Origin: Vulcanimicrobiota bacterium
GTDB lineage: Bacteria > Vulcanimicrobiota > Vulcanimicrobiia > Vulcanimicrobiales > Vulcanimicrobiaceae
Direction of reading: 5' to 3'
DNA: 64,000 bases
Assembly: GCA_963777315.1 (NCBI GenBank)
Contig: CAVZQC010000001.1
Location: 1-64,000 of the forward strand
Positions 52,517 to 59,307 of this stretch are shown here, piece after piece (within the stretch, counting starts at the first letter, position 1; the number at the start of each line of letters is the position of its first letter). Under the pieces are notes generated by a model, which saw only the letters and a program-made list of their open reading frames with translations, was not told where the DNA came from and ran no database searches. The translations under genes and the position numbers were made by a program.

Positions 52517-54159
52517 TCGATGCCTTTCGCATCGGCCGTTTCGATCGCGATGTCGTAGCCGGCATCGGCGTGCCGCACGACGCCCATGCCGCAATCCGTG
52601 GTCAGCACGCACTCCAGCCGTTCGCGCGCGTCGTCGGTCCCGTCGGCAACTACGACCATGCCGGCGTGCAGACTGTAACCGATGCCGACGCCGCCGCCGT
52701 GATGCACTGAAACCCAATGCGCGCCGGCGGCGGTATTGAGCAGCGCGTTGAGGATCGGCCAGTCCGCGATGGCGTCGCTTCCGTCTTTCATCGCCTCGGT
52801 CTCCCGGTACGGCGAGGCGACGCTGCCGGTATCGAGATGATCGCGGCCGATGACGATCGGCGCCTGCAATTCGCCGCTGCGTACCAGTTCGTTAAAGCGC
52901 AATCCCGCTTTGGCGCGGTCGCCGTAGCCCAGCCAGCAGATGCGCGCGGGCAACCCTTGAAACGACACGCGCTCTTGCGCGAGCCTGATCCAGCGGCACA
53001 GCCGTTCGTCGTGCGCAAATAGCTCGAGCAGTTCTTTGTCGCAGCGCGCGATGTCCGACGGATCGCCCGAGAGCGCGGCAAAACGAAACGGGCCGCTGCC
53101 TTTGCAAAAGAGCGGCCGAATAAACGCGGGAACGAAACCGGGAAAATCGAACGCACGCGCCACGCCGGCGCGCTGCGCCTGAGCGCGAATGTTGTTTCCG
53201 TAGTCGAAAACCACCGCGCCGGCATCCAAAAAGTCGAGCATTGCCGCAACGTGCTTTGCCACGGTCGCCAAACCACGCCGCTCGTATTCCTGCGGGTCGC
53301 TCTGCCGAAGACGCGCGGCTTGCTCCAGCGACAAATCCATCGGTACGTAGCCGTCTATCATGTCGTGCGCGGAAGTTTGGTCCGTCACGGCGTCGGGACG
53401 CAAACCCAGCTCGTACAGCGCCGGAAATTCCACGCCGGCGTTGCCTTCGTATCCGACCGACAACGCCTGCCCGTCGCGCCTTGCGCGTTCGGCCAAATCG
53501 AGCGCCTCCGGGCGAGAAGCCGCCACGACGTCGAGATAGCGCAGTTCGCACCGGCGCTGCAGGCGGGCGGGATCGACGTCGACGACCAGCGCCACGCCAT
53601 GGTTCATCGTGATTGCCAGCGGCTGCGCGCCGCCCATACCTCCGATGCCTGCGGTCAAGCACAGCCGGCCCTTGAGCGATCCACCGAAGTGCGCGCGCGC
53701 CAGTTCGGCAAATGTCTCGTACGTGCCCTGTACGATGCCTTGCGTGCCGATGTATATCCACGAGCCCGCAGTCATTTGACCGTACATCGTGAGCCCTTGC
53801 GCCTCCAGCTCGCGAAACGTCTTCCAGTCGGCCCATTTGGGGACGAGATTCGAATTCGCAATCAGCACCCGGGGCGCGCGCGCGTGCGTCTTCCACACGG
53901 CCACCGGCTTGCCGCTCTGCACGATCAGCGTCTCGTCACTGCCCAAACGTCTGAGGGTGCGAACGATCGCGTCGAATGCGCCCCACGAGCGCGCGGCTCG
54001 CCCGTTGCCCCCGTACACCACGAGATCGTCCGGACGCTCTGCGACCTGCGGATCCAGATTGTTCATCAGCATGCGCAATGCAGCTTCCTGGGGCCAGCCG
54101 CGGCATGAAATCTCGGTTCCGCGCGGAGCGCGCACGCACGGGCGTGCCGCCGTGCTCAC
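52504..54159 (-). CDS. hutU: Urocanate hydratase
   Basis: [35 protein letters not shown]. Confidence 0.97.
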
Positions 54160-55703
54160 ACCAGCGCCTCGTCGATACTGCGTTCGGCGGCGTGCACCAT
54201 TGCGCCGGTCGCAATGAGTTCGCGCGCCGCGCTGATGTCGGCGCTCGACGATCGATCGTCGGTCCAGGGCGCGATGCGTTCGCGCGCGCAATCGTACGCC
54301 GCCTGCGTTCCCGTTCCCGAACGCAGTGGACGGCGAAAATCGGTGGCGACCAGCGCCCCGAGCAGCTCGCACGCGAGCGAGCCTTCAACGTTTTGCAGCA
54401 CGCGATCCAAGTTCACCGCCGCGGTCAGCCCCATGCTCACGTGATCTTCCTGGCCGGCGGAGGTCGGAATCGAGTCGACGCTGTTCGGCCACGCCAAGCC
54501 TTTGTTTTCCGATACCATCGCTGCCGACGTGTACTGGACGATCATCAGCCCGGATTGCAGCCCCGAACGCCCCGTCAAAAACAATGGCAAACCACGCTCT
54601 TCGGCGTTGAGCAGCAGATACAGCCGCCGTTCGCTGATGCCGGCCAACTCGGCCAGCGACATCTTGAGCAAATCGCACGCGAGCGCGATCGGCTGCCCGT
54701 GAAAATTTCCGCCGGTCAGAAATACGCCGTCTTCGGGAAACACCAGCGGATTGTCCGTAACGGATATCGCTTCGATTTCGATTACGCCCCGAGCGTGCGA
54801 TGCCGCGTCGCGGACCGCGCCGTGCACCACCGGAATGCAGCGGTACGAGTACGGATCCTGAACGCGGCCGCACTCGCGATGCGATTCGACGATCTGCGAT
54901 CCGTGCAGCAGCGCGCGAAGATTGTCCGCGACCCGGGACTGGCCGGGATGCGGGCGTAAATCGTTGATGCGCCGGTCGAACACCCGATCGGTTCCGAGAA
55001 ACGCCTCGAGCGACATCGCGCCGATGATGTCGGCAGCTGCCAGCAGCCGCTCCGCGCGCAGCAAGCACAGCGCCGCGATGCCGGTCATCACTTCGGTCCC
55101 GTTGACCAGGGCCAAGCCCTCTTTTGCGCCCAGCGTAATCGGCGTCAGGCCCGCGAGTTGCAGCGCCCGCGCGCTGCTCATGCGCTCGCCGCGATAGAAC
55201 GCTTCCCCCTCGCCGATCAACGTGAGCGTCATGTGCGCCAAGGGCGCCAGATCGCCGCTGGCGCCGACCGAACCCTGGCGCGGCACCAGCGGCGTTACGC
55301 CGCGATTGAGCAGTTCGGTCAGCAAATCCAGCGTGCTTTCGCGAATACCCGAATGGCCCGCAGCCAGCGAGCTCACCCGCAGCACTCCGGCGGCGCGTAC
55401 GAACTCACGCGGCAGCGGTTCGCCCGTTCCGGCCGCGTGGCTGCGCACCAGATTCAGCTGCAGCTGGGCGGCGTCTTTGGGATCTATCCGCACGTTCGCC
55501 AAGCGGCCGAATCCCGTCGTGATGCCGTATATCGCATCTCCCATGCCGAACTTCTCTTCGACCAGGCGCCGCGCGGCCGCCACGCGAGCACGCGCGGATT
55601 CCGTGACGCGGACGACCGCTCCATCTTCGGCGATCGCTCGAATCGCCTCGAGGGGCAGGTGCCGGCCGTCCAGGTCGACCGCCGGCAGCGCAGTTGCCGT
55701 CAT
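54156..55703 (-). CDS. hutH: Histidine ammonia-lyase
   Basis: [20 protein letters not shown] (MIO Ala-Ser-Gly), [22 protein letters not shown]. Confidence 0.96.
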
Positions 55704-55737: not shown

Positions 55738-56260
55738 TCAGAGCGAGCTCCAGTCGGCGCGCCGCGGCCTCGCGTACGGCGGTCCGCTCTGAATGACGAT
55801 CTCTTCGTGGTCGCGCAGCGGAATAGCACGCGGGTCGCGCGTCCACGCAGTGCCGTTGACCGTCGCGCGCAGCGCACGCCCGGCGCGAGCACGCACGCCG
55901 TCGGCCTGCCGATGGTTGAGTTCGCGGTCCCAAATGTCAAAGAACTGCCCGAGCGTAAACGTACGGTTCACCGGCGCTTCGATGTGAATGATTCCGTCGT
56001 CGTCGTGCGTGTGCACCCAGTATAAACAGCCGGCGCCGGCGGGTATGCCGACTTGAGCGGGAATATGGATCGCGCGTCCACGGTCGAACAGACTGAAGAT
56101 GCGTATGCACGTGCACCACCGCGCCTTCCGAGACGTCGCACCGGATGCCGTCGATGGCCAGGCCGGCCAGCATGTTCTGGGCGACGGCCGGCAGCGGCGC
56201 CGCGTTCGCAAGCAATGGTGCCGCCATGCACAGCGCAACGGCGGTTCGCAAATTCAACAT
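55738..56260 (-). CDS. Secreted His-rich hypothetical protein with an apparent +1 frameshift at 56092
   Basis: Signal peptide; removing one base joins HVHTHLQ-LFDRG...CLYWVHTHDDDGIIHIE...FTLGQFFDIW into a 173-aa ORF. Confidence 0.75.
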
Positions 56261-56270
56261 GGGACCTCGC

Positions 56271-56321
56271 GGTGGATACGGTGTGTATAACAGATAATTA
56301 TTGTGGAAACGCTGTGAGTAG
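56271..56321. promoter_or_regulatory. Cluster of co-oriented DnaA-box-like 9-mers
   Basis: TGTGTATAA (56282-56290, perfect TTATNCACA), TGTGGAAAC (56302-56310), and weaker GGTGGATAC and TGTGAGTAG, in an AT-rich patch. Confidence 0.5.
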
Positions 56322-56334
56322 CGATTGCGCCCTC

Positions 56335-56363
56335 TTGCTACGACTTTTGCGCGATGATACCAT
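56335..56363 (+). promoter_or_regulatory. sigma70 promoter driving the intergenic RNA
   Basis: TTGCTA-N17-TACCAT with extended -10 TGn. Confidence 0.7.
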
Positions 56364-56369
56364 TCAAAA

Positions 56370-56570
56370 ACTTCGATAAAACGAAGGGCGATGAACGTAT
56401 AGTCGCGATCGGACCATGTTGACGATGCAGTCGCAACGTCGGCGATCCGAGTGGGCCGATCGAACCGTCGAGCGGCGTCAGTAGGGCTTCTTCACCGGAG
56501 CCAAACAGGCGAAATCGATGCGTGAATACGTCGAAAGCCTCGGGCTCGTTCCGGGGCTTTCGTTTGCGTT
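56370..56570 (+). ncRNA. Structured ncRNA, compact raiA-motif-like
   Basis: Own promoter and terminator, no credible long ORF, end-to-end pairing ACGTAT(56395)/ATACGT(56526); motifs CGATGCAGTCGCA, CGATCC, TCAGTAG and CAGGCGA in the order recalled for raiA RNA. Confidence 0.55.
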
Positions 56571-56572
56571 TT
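56532..56572. terminator. Intrinsic terminator between the ncRNA and the convergent WYL gene
   Basis: CGAAAGCCTCGG-gctcgtt-CCGGGGCTTTCG followed by TTTGCGTTTT. Confidence 0.8.
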
Positions 56573-56580
56573 CGAACCTC

Positions 56581-57621
56581 TTATTTCGAGACCGGCAGTT
56601 CGTACTTGGCGGCGATTTGCGCGATCAGCATGCGAACGCGCGAGCGAACGTCTTCAGGCGCGATGACCTCGGCCTGCGCCCCCCATCCCAGCACCCAGCG
56701 CGCGAGTTCGTCCACGTCTGCGACGTTGTACGCGATCTCCACCGAACCGTCGGCGCGGCGTTCGACGGCGCGCTCGGCAACCACGCGCGCGGCGACGGCG
56801 GCTTTGGCGACGCGGGCCGCAAAACGAACGCGCACTTCGCTCGTTCGATCGCTGTGCAGTACGCCGCTGATCGAAGTCGAGGCGAAATCTGCGATGCTGA
56901 AGTCCGAGGGCTTGGTGTACGTTTGCCCGAGCACCGTCACGTCGGACATGCTGTCCACGGCAAACACGCGCTTGTCGCGGCGAGCGTGATCGTACGCGAC
57001 GCAATATACGCGGCCGCCGTTGACGATGAAGCCATAGGGGTCGGCATTTCGCTTGGAACGGTTGCCTTCTTTGTCCTGATACGTGAACGAGACGCAGCGC
57101 GTGCTGCGCTCGGCGGCGGAAAGCATTCCGAAGATGCGTTCCCCCTGTTCGTCCAAGGTGATCTCGCTCAGACGAAACGCGACGTTGGGGCGAGCCTGCA
57201 TGCGTTCTTTGGCGCCGCTTCCGCTCGAACCGACGATCTTTGCGGTGACTTCATCGACGTAGGTTCCGATCGCGCCGCCCAAACTCGCGCTGATGGCGCG
57301 CAGCGCCACCAAACCGAACAGTTCGCCCGAGCTCAGCTCCATACGCTTGAGGCTGTAGCCTTCGGAAAACCGGTACGTGTTCGTGCCGCGATCGAAGTAC
57401 CACGGGAAACCCGCTTCCGCCAGCACCGCCAGATACCGGCGTAGGCTTCGCGTGCTGGGACGGTGTTCGCCCTCGGAGATACGGTCTTTGAGCCGCTCGA
57501 ACGAAAAGCGCCCCTCGTCGATGGCGTTGAGAAGCCTGACGAGCAAGACGATTTTCGGCTCATTGGTACGTTCTACGGTAGGTCTCCCAAAGCTTGGAAA
57601 GTCTTGCCGTAATTGTGCCAC
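56581..57621 (-). CDS. HTH-WYL-WCX transcriptional regulator (PafBC/DriD-like)
   Basis: wHTH STRSLRRYLAVL; WYL core RNADPYG..VYCVAYDHARRDKRVFAVD; WCX WVLGWGAQAEVIAPEDVR. Confidence 0.9.
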   Translation of the reverse strand: MAQLRQDFPSFGRPTVERTNEPKIVLLVRLLNAIDEGRFSFERLKDRISEGEHRPSTRSLRRYLAVLAEAGFPWYFDRGTNTYRFSEGYSLKRMELSSGELFGLVALRAISASLGGAIGTYVDEVTAKIVGSSGSGAKERMQARPNVAFRLSEITLDEQGERIFGMLSAAERSTRCVSFTYQDKEGNRSKRNADPYGFIVNGGRVYCVAYDHARRDKRVFAVDSMSDVTVLGQTYTKPSDFSIADFASTSISGVLHSDRTSEVRVRFAARVAKAAVAARVVAERAVERRADGSVEIAYNVADVDELARWVLGWGAQAEVIAPEDVRSRVRMLIAQIAAKYELPVSK

Positions 57622-57651: not shown

Positions 57652-59307
57652 TCAAAATCCGCTGCGGCCGGTGGGCTCGGGGACCGGGGAAGGCGATCCG
57701 GCCGGCACAGCCGGGGCCGGCACGGAGATCGGCTTGGGAAAACAGCCGTCGGGTGCAGACATCGGCGGTGTCGTGGGCAATGGCGGCGCCGGCGTCACGC
57801 CGACTTCGAGCGGATAATTGGAGCCGCCGTCGGTCATCGTTTGGACGACCATGCGGGACGCCGAACCTGCCGCCAGCGTTTGCGGAGGCCCGATTTGATA
57901 GGCCTGTGAAAGCCGCGCGCAGCCCAATTCGATCAGCGCTCCGTCGACCAGAAAACTGCTGCGCACGGGCCCTCCAAGGGGCCGCTCGTAGAGGTATGCG
58001 ATCGCCGGTGCCGCCGTGGGATTGCGCAGCTCGAACGTGAGCGTGCGCAGGACGCCGTACTCGCCGTAGTCATGACCCGATGAAGGCTGCGCCGCCGGCG
58101 GCGTTGCGGTTCCATACTCCAGACTTGCTTGCGGGCCGCCGACGCTGTACGAGACCACGTCGCTATCGGCGTAGCCGTTCAGATCGAACGTCCCGGTTCT
58201 GTGATGACCGTCGCCCGCAAGCCGAGGACCATCCAGGTACGCAGCTATCTGGGCATCGGATATTTCGGGCGCAACGGCTAGAACGGTCACGGCGACCGGG
58301 CCGCCGCTCAGGACGTTGATGCCGACGCTGCCGGCCGCGCCGTCTAAATGCTGCATCTCAAAGCGATCCGCGACGTAGGCCGTGCCGGGCTGCAGATCGG
58401 CTACGGCTCCTTGATTGCGCGGCTTGCGCACGAGAAAATCGCGCGAAACGTTGTGTCCCACGGTCATCACGTCGATGTTGGGACCGGCCGACGCGTCGAT
58501 GAGCTGCACGCTTGCAGGCGTCAGCGTGGCTTGGAGTACGACCAGTAAACGTCGCGGTTGCCCTACATTCTGATGATAGTAATACAGCCGCGCCGGTGCT
58601 CCGCTCGACACCTGCGCGCGGTAGAGCACGCCGTCGGCCAAAATTTTCTCGGGATCGTCGTCGTAAAACAGCAGTGCCGGAGCGAACCCGGGCACGTCGA
58701 GGTTTTGCAGGTTCACCGACACGGTCGTATCCACGTCGTAATAGAGATCGCCGCCCGCAATATGCACCCCAACCGGAACCGCCGCCGTCGCGCCGGGCGC
58801 GAACGAAGCCGGCAGCGTAAACGCCGGCGGCGTCAGGACCGCTCCGGGCTGCAGTTGAACGGCCTGCGTTACGGCTTTGGCGAGCTGCGTCTGCAGCCAG
58901 GCGGGATCGATTGGATTGCCGGTGACGCGAACCCAGACCGAGCTGGCGACGGCGCCGGCGTCGAGCGCTACGCGAATGGGCACCTGCACCGTCGCGCCCG
59001 TCGAGTCGGCGACGGTCAGGGTCGCTCTTCCCGTTTGGGCGGACGCAGTCACCGTTACGGTGCGAGCATTTTGATCGACTGCAGCCGTTACCAGCGCAGT
59101 GTCGAGCTGCGCGGAAATGCTTGCGTTTGCTCCGGTGACCGTGATGATTTGCGTTTGCGAAGGATGCAGATTGACCGCATTTGGTGCTGCTGCCAGCGGG
59201 GCTGGAGCCGGCGTGGTTGCAACCGGCGGTGACGGGGGCGCCGTGGCCTGCAGCAAGGCTGCCATGAACAATGCGGGATTCACACCAGGTAGTACTACGG
59301 CGTGCAA
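57652..59307 (-). CDS. Secreted hypothetical protein
   Basis: Signal-like N-terminus, Ig-like segment, FYDDDPE/GVLY/RLYYYH/GEYGV/GGSNYP motifs, Pro-rich ends; start uncertain. Confidence 0.75.
   Translation of the reverse strand: MHAVVLPGVNPALFMAALLQATAPPSPPVATTPAPAPLAAAPNAVNLHPSQTQIITVTGANASISAQLDTALVTAAVDQNARTVTVTASAQTGRATLTVADSTGATVQVPIRVALDAGAVASSVWVRVTGNPIDPAWLQTQLAKAVTQAVQLQPGAVLTPPAFTLPASFAPGATAAVPVGVHIAGGDLYYDVDTTVSVNLQNLDVPGFAPALLFYDDDPEKILADGVLYRAQVSSGAPARLYYYHQNVGQPRRLLVVLQATLTPASVQLIDASAGPNIDVMTVGHNVSRDFLVRKPRNQGAVADLQPGTAYVADRFEMQHLDGAAGSVGINVLSGGPVAVTVLAVAPEISDAQIAAYLDGPRLAGDGHHRTGTFDLNGYADSDVVSYSVGGPQASLEYGTATPPAAQPSSGHDYGEYGVLRTLTFELRNPTAAPAIAYLYERPLGGPVRSSFLVDGALIELGCARLSQAYQIGPPQTLAAGSASRMVVQTMTDGGSNYPLEVGVTPAPPLPTTPPMSAPDGCFPKPISVPAPAVPAGSPSPVPEPTGRSGF

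Follow-up and report, generated by a model that had tools for sequence, protein, structure and literature searches.

Between a hut cluster and the gene for a WYL regulator, a 64,000-nt stretch of a Vulcanimicrobiota bacterium genome (positions 1 to 64,000 of contig CAVZQC010000001.1, assembly GCA_963777315.1, here called the window) contains a short unit that has a promoter and a terminator and encodes no credible protein. Does this unit specify a structured RNA, does that RNA belong to a known class such as the raiA motif, as an earlier sequence-only reading had proposed, and what might it do? Comparison of genome sequences establishes the gene unit together with its fold, copy number, promoter array and synteny. 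The locus is made up as follows.

54156-55703, minus strand: hutH-like aromatic amino acid lyase in the hut cluster (context only)
55738-56260, minus strand: divergently oriented gene for a hypothetical protein, with a frameshift in this assembly (context only)
56271-56321, plus strand: four same-strand DnaA-box-like 9-mers (56271-79, 56282-90, 56302-10 and 56313-21)
56335-56363, plus strand: sigma-70-type promoter (-35 TTGCTA at 56335-56340, 17-nt spacer, extended -10 TG at 56355-56356, TACCAT at 56358-56363)
56370-56566, plus strand: predicted non-coding RNA of ~197 nt including the terminator, with predicted start and end; 162 bits to model R1, which was itself built from this RNA and its relatives
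56532-56572, plus strand: intrinsic terminator hairpin (56532-56562, 13 pairs counting G-T) and T-rich tail
56581-57621, minus strand: convergent WYL-WCX regulator, DriD/PafBC-like, with Ala where DriD Arg207 aligns

The hypothetical gene, which is conserved, has a frameshift near codon 56 relative to the intact ortholog in another genome (G001), due to either a sequencing error or a recent break. Upstream of the WYL gene, a 551-aa protein (57652-59307, minus strand) that belongs to no Pfam/NCBIfam family is syntenic in most main-clade loci.

The RNA gene and its fold

The promoter TTGCTA-N17-TGn-TACCAT of the sequence-only reading was found at the expected place, and of 108 homologous regions upstream, 105 retain its TTG / TG-TA..T layout at 35-36 nt from the start of the RNA. 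A generic promoter scan of the region found none, including this one. The proposed terminator hairpin was also present, and terminator-like hairpins were seen downstream of the other RNA copies inspected. In the 42 copies with its ATG context, a 22-codon ORF (56416-56484) varies in frame and in length, so the small-peptide reading was rejected and the unit is left, as had been thought, without a credible protein. In an all-Rfam search only three tRNAs in the window reached the gathering level and the element had no match at E<=10; together with conservation in relatives, this supports the earlier suggestion of a stand-alone structured RNA that is possibly new. The unit is very probably a real gene for a structured RNA of an uncatalogued class. 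Among the 80 metagenome matches listed (of 96), all were on contigs >1.1 kb, and therefore none marks a transcript.

The fold contains the following elements.

56371-56386, plus strand: P1, a hairpin at the extreme 5' end (98.7% paired in 108 rows, double changes in 3 of 5 pairs)
56388-56406, plus strand: P2, a hairpin (98.6% paired) with a loop, 56395-56399, that pairs with the 3' tail
56407-56461, plus strand: P3 arm, with a conserved basal stem (92% paired) and a variable, dispensable interior; contains raiA-like words
56466-56520, plus strand: P4/P5 arm (P4, 56466-71 with 56515-20; P5, 56476-56511)
56527-56531, plus strand: 3' strand of the pseudoknot with P2 loop 56395-99 (88% paired, double changes in 4 of 5 pairs)

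Folding energy by itself is moderate evidence for a structured RNA, with z at -3.4 when the terminator is included, -2.32 for 56370-56531 (7 of 200 shuffles as good) and -1.87 for the core delimited in the sequence-only reading. That reading had proposed a search for covariation, and the 108 distinct homologs collected show double-sided changes that support the fold. In a 61-row alignment that was not fitted to structure, 84.6% of cells pair, whereas shuffles give 77.9% and slid controls 28-41%, and 34 of 46 pairs have double-sided changes against 22.6 in shuffles, though the shuffle controls overstate the case because kin genomes share sequence. The 108-row alignment, which is fitted to the model and biased towards it, agrees.

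In P2, the pair 56391-56403 is swapped between A-U and G-C in 18 of the 61 rows. The P4/P5 arm has compensatory changes, and the pair 56468-56518 shows the highest mutual information; P5, a helix with A.A and purine-purine mismatches and a core that is 98.4% paired, has the main clade's highest sequence conservation. The P3 interior is missing or shortened in L007, L013, L193, L205 and L206, and support for the distal helix of P3 is poor (57-61% paired). Two loci, L008 (G019; one row in alignments A1-A3) and L013 (G021; one row in A1 and A3 and one of the five short-variant examples), come from genomes flagged unpublished, and no main claim rests on either.

Complementarity between the P2 loop and the tail is retained in diverged clades with wholly different letters. 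When loops and tails were swapped, all 16 g24-type loops paired with their own tail, against 14% with main-clade tails and 18% with interior windows. Two of three rows from the sister family f2 also passed, the third being mis-parsed, and the automatic test in the main clade was noisy (own 4.79 vs interior 3.67). These comparisons yield a fold of two 5' hairpins, two long arms and a pseudoknot between P2 loop and 3' tail that would clamp the ends.

The pairings proposed from the sequence alone fared unevenly in the 108 homologs. The stem GGCTTC/GGAGCC holds (94% paired), and ACGTAT and ATACGT do pair (84%), as the hairpin-loop-to-tail pseudoknot rather than as a closing stem. The inner closing stem of the core (62% paired) and the stem GACG/CGTC (49%) fail. 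The pseudoknot TCGC/GCGA reaches 80% pairing, but a helix paired at 98% competes with it, and the 13 rows with a changed GGCG show no consistent compensation at positions 62-65. Absent from that reading were the two conserved 5' hairpins (56371-56406) and the DnaA-box-like array upstream.

Distribution and comparison with known RNA classes

Of 41 genomes, 14 were matched by a DNA search; all of these belong to the window's family (f1), and several have tandem copies. The R1 model, built from 61 sequences, matched 60 of 151 genomes of the phylum, namely the window's own and 59 of the 81 in f1, and none of 69 Vulcanimicrobiota genomes outside f1. Another model, R2, fails to detect the window RNA and gave only weak matches outside f1 (best 27.6 bits). 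Diverged copies in more genera and in f2 were reached via the promoter. When 20 WYL loci were sampled from genomes without an R1 match at or near WYL, the promoter matrix revealed the unit in 11, including f2, and the RNA unit is present in all five f2 genomes. The promoter pattern alone matched 67 of 81 f1, 2 of 2 f2 and 7 of 67 other genomes, counts in which two f1 genomes matched only within coding sequence and some true units were missed; in another phylum 9 of 151 genomes matched. R1 scores on the diverged clades are weak (9-19 bits), yet fall at the predicted starts. The f2 and main-clade RNAs have CGUCAG and CAGGCGA in common, and as R1 and R2 cross-detect diverged clades only weakly, the g24-type clade is taken as probably homologous on the grounds of its promoter, position and architecture.

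The copy number is 1-4. Tandem sets of two to four are frequent among the diverged copies, and three or four tandem copies were found in six of six genomes of genus g24. Second-locus copies adjoin other genes and have no WYL gene; some precede a same-strand OPT gene by ~80-95 nt and others do not. Sequence comparison shows both tandem amplification and movement of the upstream array with the gene to new loci. Seven pattern matches in phage were examined and phage carriage was rejected, as none was full-length (best 14.8 bits, partial).

Pattern matches in named genomes place the family in Vulcanimicrobiota/Eremiobacterota. Four matching loci came from records assigned to other taxa, and because three have the hutH/WYL synteny and the fourth clusters with second-locus copies, we infer that these records are mislabelled. 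The range so far is one order of Vulcanimicrobiota, made up of soil bacteria, among the genomes searched, in which kin are not independent samples.

The sequence-only reading had taken the unit for a minimal raiA-motif RNA. In the available text of two papers (PMC12968392, PMC10861870), raiA RNAs enclose a P3a-P3b/P4/PK1/PK2 core in a long P1 that bears GU and GGU bulges, and are found at a single locus, usually near raiA and comFC, in Bacillota and Actinomycetota; a minimal raiA of 113 nt retains P1, P3, P4 and probably both pseudoknots (PMC12968392, available text). Like raiA-motif RNA / ModT (RF03072), the window RNA is ~200 nt long, independently transcribed, pseudoknotted and a candidate trans-acting RNA, and one sub-lineage of its family has a few short words in common with raiA, which occur in the same order in the window RNA and one raiA P3 region. 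Unlike raiA, it has two 5' hairpins, closure by a loop-to-tail pseudoknot, 1-4 copies and a DnaA-box-like promoter, and it lacks the P1, P3, P4 and pseudoknots that the 113-nt raiA keeps. Its 5' end is a local hairpin rather than a raiA-type closing P1, the PK1-equivalent pairing reaches only 60.6% over 108 rows (one pair 24/92) in an arm lost from some copies, and the neighbours are WYL, hut genes, the OPT transporter and others.

The covariance model RF03072 (gathering 101.3 bits), proposed earlier as the check on this assignment, gave no match at E<=10 in the genome or the region, and none in the 151 phylum genomes. A first positive control with five genomes found no RF03072 RNA, and in a control with 41 Clostridia-class genomes four were above the cut-off. 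Neither R1 nor R2 matches these four raiA RNAs. The P1b/P1c words GGUCUGUG/GGUUUGUG and the P4/PK2 word UGUGGGG were found in 0 of 100 family members vs 4 of 4 raiA RNAs, and CCAGGUCA in 0 of 100 vs 2 of 4. The pairwise similarity of the window RNA to the four was reached by 88, 374, 638 and 249 of 1000 shuffles; the family compared with them lies slightly above shuffles (median z 0.66; 8 of 100 above 2), but the words in common occur in only 16 of 100 members. The raiA reading, on these comparisons, is largely refuted, and a remote, remodelled raiA-motif RNA seems barely credible.

Other known classes were compared in the same way. Bacterial Y RNAs are characterized by a tRNA-like domain and by a TROVE gene no more than 4 kb away (PMC4201824, available text). 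Like YrlA/YrlB and Yrn1 with Ro60/Rsr, this family includes several related ncRNA genes in one neighbourhood, and part of it has a UCCGA/UUGAC look-alike of the Ro60 site. The Y RNA/Ro60 reading was rejected: the look-alike is missing in about half of the family, the locus has no Rfam match, ARAGORN tRNA call or tRNA-like domain, Ro60/TROVE genes number 0 in the window's own genome (90% complete; control genomes positive), and the one genome of 41 with TROVE has no match to the RNA. A missing housekeeping RNA was also rejected, as tmRNA (C1:138750), SRP (C4:583916) and RNase P (C4:662122) are elsewhere in the genome. The tmRNA (G000:C1:138750-139103) scores 118 bits in Rfam and was missed by ARAGORN at default settings, and a full-length but weak 6S candidate (L138, G000:C2:535300-535484, minus strand) scores 21.5 bits, below the gathering score. 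The main locus ends at a convergent gene, with no same-strand target, which makes a leader or riboswitch role unlikely, and since most conserved bases are paired, antisense action is unlikely too.

No description of the RNA was found in the literature searched, which was mostly open-access; the motif supplements of PMC8632094, PMC11109978, PMC6429828 and PMC5737381 could hold a non-Rfam relative. The apparent newness concerns the RNA class and its promoter arrangement, in a range of one order so far, and the mechanism set out below is a proposal.

A DnaA-box-like array at the promoter

The four boxes in the window have spacings of 11, 20 and 11 bp, and that at 56282-90 is a perfect TGTGTATAA. 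An exact TGTGNATAA is present on the sense strand in 53 of 108 distinct upstream regions and within one mismatch in 99; the opposite strand has 0 exact and 1 within one mismatch, and random genomic windows have 0.02% exact and 0.7% within one mismatch. The boxes peak at -88/89, -68/69 and -57/58, a fixed distance upstream. The array accompanies RNA copies at unrelated second loci, is duplicated with each tandem copy, and across the order varies less in sequence than the RNA does. A review gives the DnaA box consensus as TTATCCACA and places nrd, dnaN and division genes under DnaA control (PMC8203912, available text), and TGTGNATAA is the reverse complement of the box as given there.

The 2.83-Mb genome has 10 perfect sites, including the RNA locus, minC, mutS and two at or in dnaA, and several of the 10 fall within or next to unrelated genes. 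On the dnaA strand, the spacer between dnaA and rpmH carries the same paired boxes. In a matrix scan of the genome, where the window's top score is circular as the matrix was trained on these promoters, the minC start ranked second (36.1) and the promoter of nrdJ (B12 ribonucleotide reductase) fourth (13.3), and only two sites other than the window scored above 15. The array at the minC start is also found in G024, and boxes lie upstream of mutS, of lexA in G010 and of ftsA in two f3 genomes without a WYL ortholog. The RNA promoter pattern itself matches directly upstream of lexA (L233, G010:C41:155727). Boxes of the TTAT(N)CACA type are found at the promoter, in common with replication and division genes.

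Several of these places are of interest in themselves. At G000:C2:313133-315706 (L207), two minD genes in tandem come after minC, and the box array lies at the operon start. The B12-dependent ribonucleotide reductase (L208, G000:C4:612538 onward) has an intein signature and an array upstream, and the third-best matrix score (15.6) belongs to a further array near a tRNA-Pro gene (G000:C4:162737-162775). An identical pair of boxes recurs 10 times in G024 (L266-L268, L271-L277); both of the two copies examined are upstream of transposase-like ORFs, which suggests an insertion sequence carrying DnaA boxes.

This arrangement resembles that of DnaA-regulated promoters (E. coli nrdAB and dnaA, division genes), where several boxes are found just upstream of the promoter, and DnaA probably controls the RNA promoter. 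It most likely activates, because the boxes are upstream of an intact -35 at fixed spacing. The WYL protein is a less likely binder of the array, as boxes are present at ftsA and dnaA-dnaN in genomes without a WYL ortholog. Another direct-repeat factor could read the TGTG array instead of DnaA. The known DnaA targets in the available text of PMC8203912 are protein genes, unlike the structured RNA here, and the term 'small RNA' has 0 occurrences in that review; literature searches found no description of a DnaA-controlled structured RNA.

The WYL neighbour and possible roles of the RNA

The convergent gene, for a regulator of DNA-damage type, encodes WYL and WCX domains, as in DriD and PafBC, and its best PDB matches are DriD/PafBC proteins (E 1e-15 to 3e-7). 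Orthologs were found in 80 of 81 f1 and 2 of 2 f2 genomes, with only weak matches elsewhere. WYL is convergent to the RNA in 61 of the 85 loci with >=1 kb downstream, and hutH is likewise found in 61; the 24 loci without WYL are mostly second-locus copies, many of them included deliberately, and count L200 (WYL halves between two RNA copies) as one. At L200 (contig end of G192:C6) two identical inverted RNA copies flank the two WYL halves, which is probably an assembly artefact. The 20 WYL loci from R1-negative genomes have the unit in 11, hutH in 4 and both in 1, and in these deep branches WYL remains adjacent longer than other neighbours. The RNA-WYL module suggested earlier is favoured by this synteny (61 of 85 loci, 11 of 20 deep loci), but is not obligatory, as second-locus copies are without WYL.

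Throughout the order, WYL orthologs have an invariant RxFA(V/I/L)D where DriD has RxWRLDR. The Arg207 equivalent is Ala in all aligned orthologs, including those without an adjacent unit, and the equivalents of DriD Y168, R178, Y192 and R204 are retained. In the available text of the two structural sources, R207A impairs DriD, Arg207 being needed for activation driven by ssDNA, and DriD binds ssRNA weakly (PMC9186387); DriD and PafBC prefer ssDNA to RNA (PMC9186387, PMC11804915); PafBC is not activated by ssRNA, and PafB loses ssDNA binding when two Arg residues are changed to Ala (PMC11804915). The window WYL, unlike DriD, is without the Arg207 equivalent, and DriD and PafBC, as described there, sense ssDNA and disfavour RNA. 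Literature searches found no ncRNA partner of a DriD/PafBC-type WYL regulator. The link between RNA and WYL is a lead and not a result, and WYL is a candidate partner.

We prefer to read the unit as a new class of RNA that is coupled to DnaA, acts in trans and binds protein, a statement that as a whole we hold in even balance. A self-standing gene would produce a compactly folded, trans-acting RNA of a class absent from Rfam 15. DnaA would bind the predicted box array and activate the promoter, and the RNA level would follow DnaA activity together with replication and division genes. Through its shape the RNA would then serve a protein as decoy or scaffold, and the adjacent WYL regulator is the first candidate partner. 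Action by shape on a protein is suggested because the sequence turns over almost completely while the architecture stays, because the conserved bases are nearly all paired, and because extra copies are kept, as expected if dosage matters. CsrB/RsmZ and the 6S paralogs, multi-copy decoy RNAs that are stand-alone and paralogous and bind protein on the basis of shape, are our working analogy. Unlike them, this RNA has no Rfam match to those families and its fold is not a 6S-type rod.

More specifically, the RNA might be a ligand or inhibitor of the neighbouring WYL protein, in a relay from DnaA through the RNA to WYL under replication stress, which we consider unlikely. Its fullest form, in which a DnaA-activated pseudoknotted RNA would be the dedicated ligand of a retuned DriD-like WYL and tandem copies would set the gain, seems to us equally doubtful; if true, an RNA messenger in place of ssDNA would relay the status of the replication initiator to the DNA-damage/division programme. 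Convergent synteny and the common range of ortholog and unit (f1 and f2) favour such a relay, and the WYL pocket may be retuned, because Ala replaces the Arg207 that matters in DriD and a double change from Arg to Ala abolishes PafB ssDNA binding. But hutH is kept in equally many main-clade loci, so ordinary synteny accounts for much of this; second-locus copies adjoin other genes, the 9 of 20 WYL loci without the unit carry the same Ala, the other DriD ligand residues are retained, and ssRNA is a weak ligand of DriD and does not activate PafBC in the available text. The regulation of the WYL gene by convergent or antisense transcription is highly unlikely: the genes are tail-to-tail, the WYL stop codon (56581) being 19 bases from the hairpin end (56562), but the RNA does not overlap the WYL coding sequence, the gap ranges from ~30 to ~2000 bases among loci, some copies are away from WYL, and such a role does not need a conserved pseudoknot.

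Sites such as datA and the DnaA-box clusters of Bacillus titrate DnaA, and the array here might similarly be the main functional element, with the RNA secondary. The duplication of the array with each tandem copy and its better conservation across the order are consistent with this, but the RNA fold is under compensatory selection, the boxes keep a fixed distance to the -35, and every copy retains its own promoter and hairpins; we think titration quite improbable. Much the same applies to a catalytic or metabolite-binding RNA acting alone, an improbable reading to which the pseudoknotted fold and the near-invariant non-canonical P5 pairs of the main clade lend some weight. Against it, no Rfam ribozyme or riboswitch family matches even at E<=10, few bases are invariant across clades, one copy (L218) is without most of both arms, and the main locus has no same-strand gene downstream.

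New folds are seldom found among large structured bacterial RNAs, and for several that are widespread no function is known. Most orphan RNAs come without the two leads available here: the promoter groups this RNA with dnaA, minCD, nrdJ and mutS, and its long-retained neighbour belongs to a family of regulators that sense nucleic acids. The natural short variants and the wholly changed clades define a minimal core for structure work, and a cultured member of the phylum exists (PMC9758169, available text). In this order of Vulcanimicrobiota, the gene may link the cell cycle to a structured RNA.
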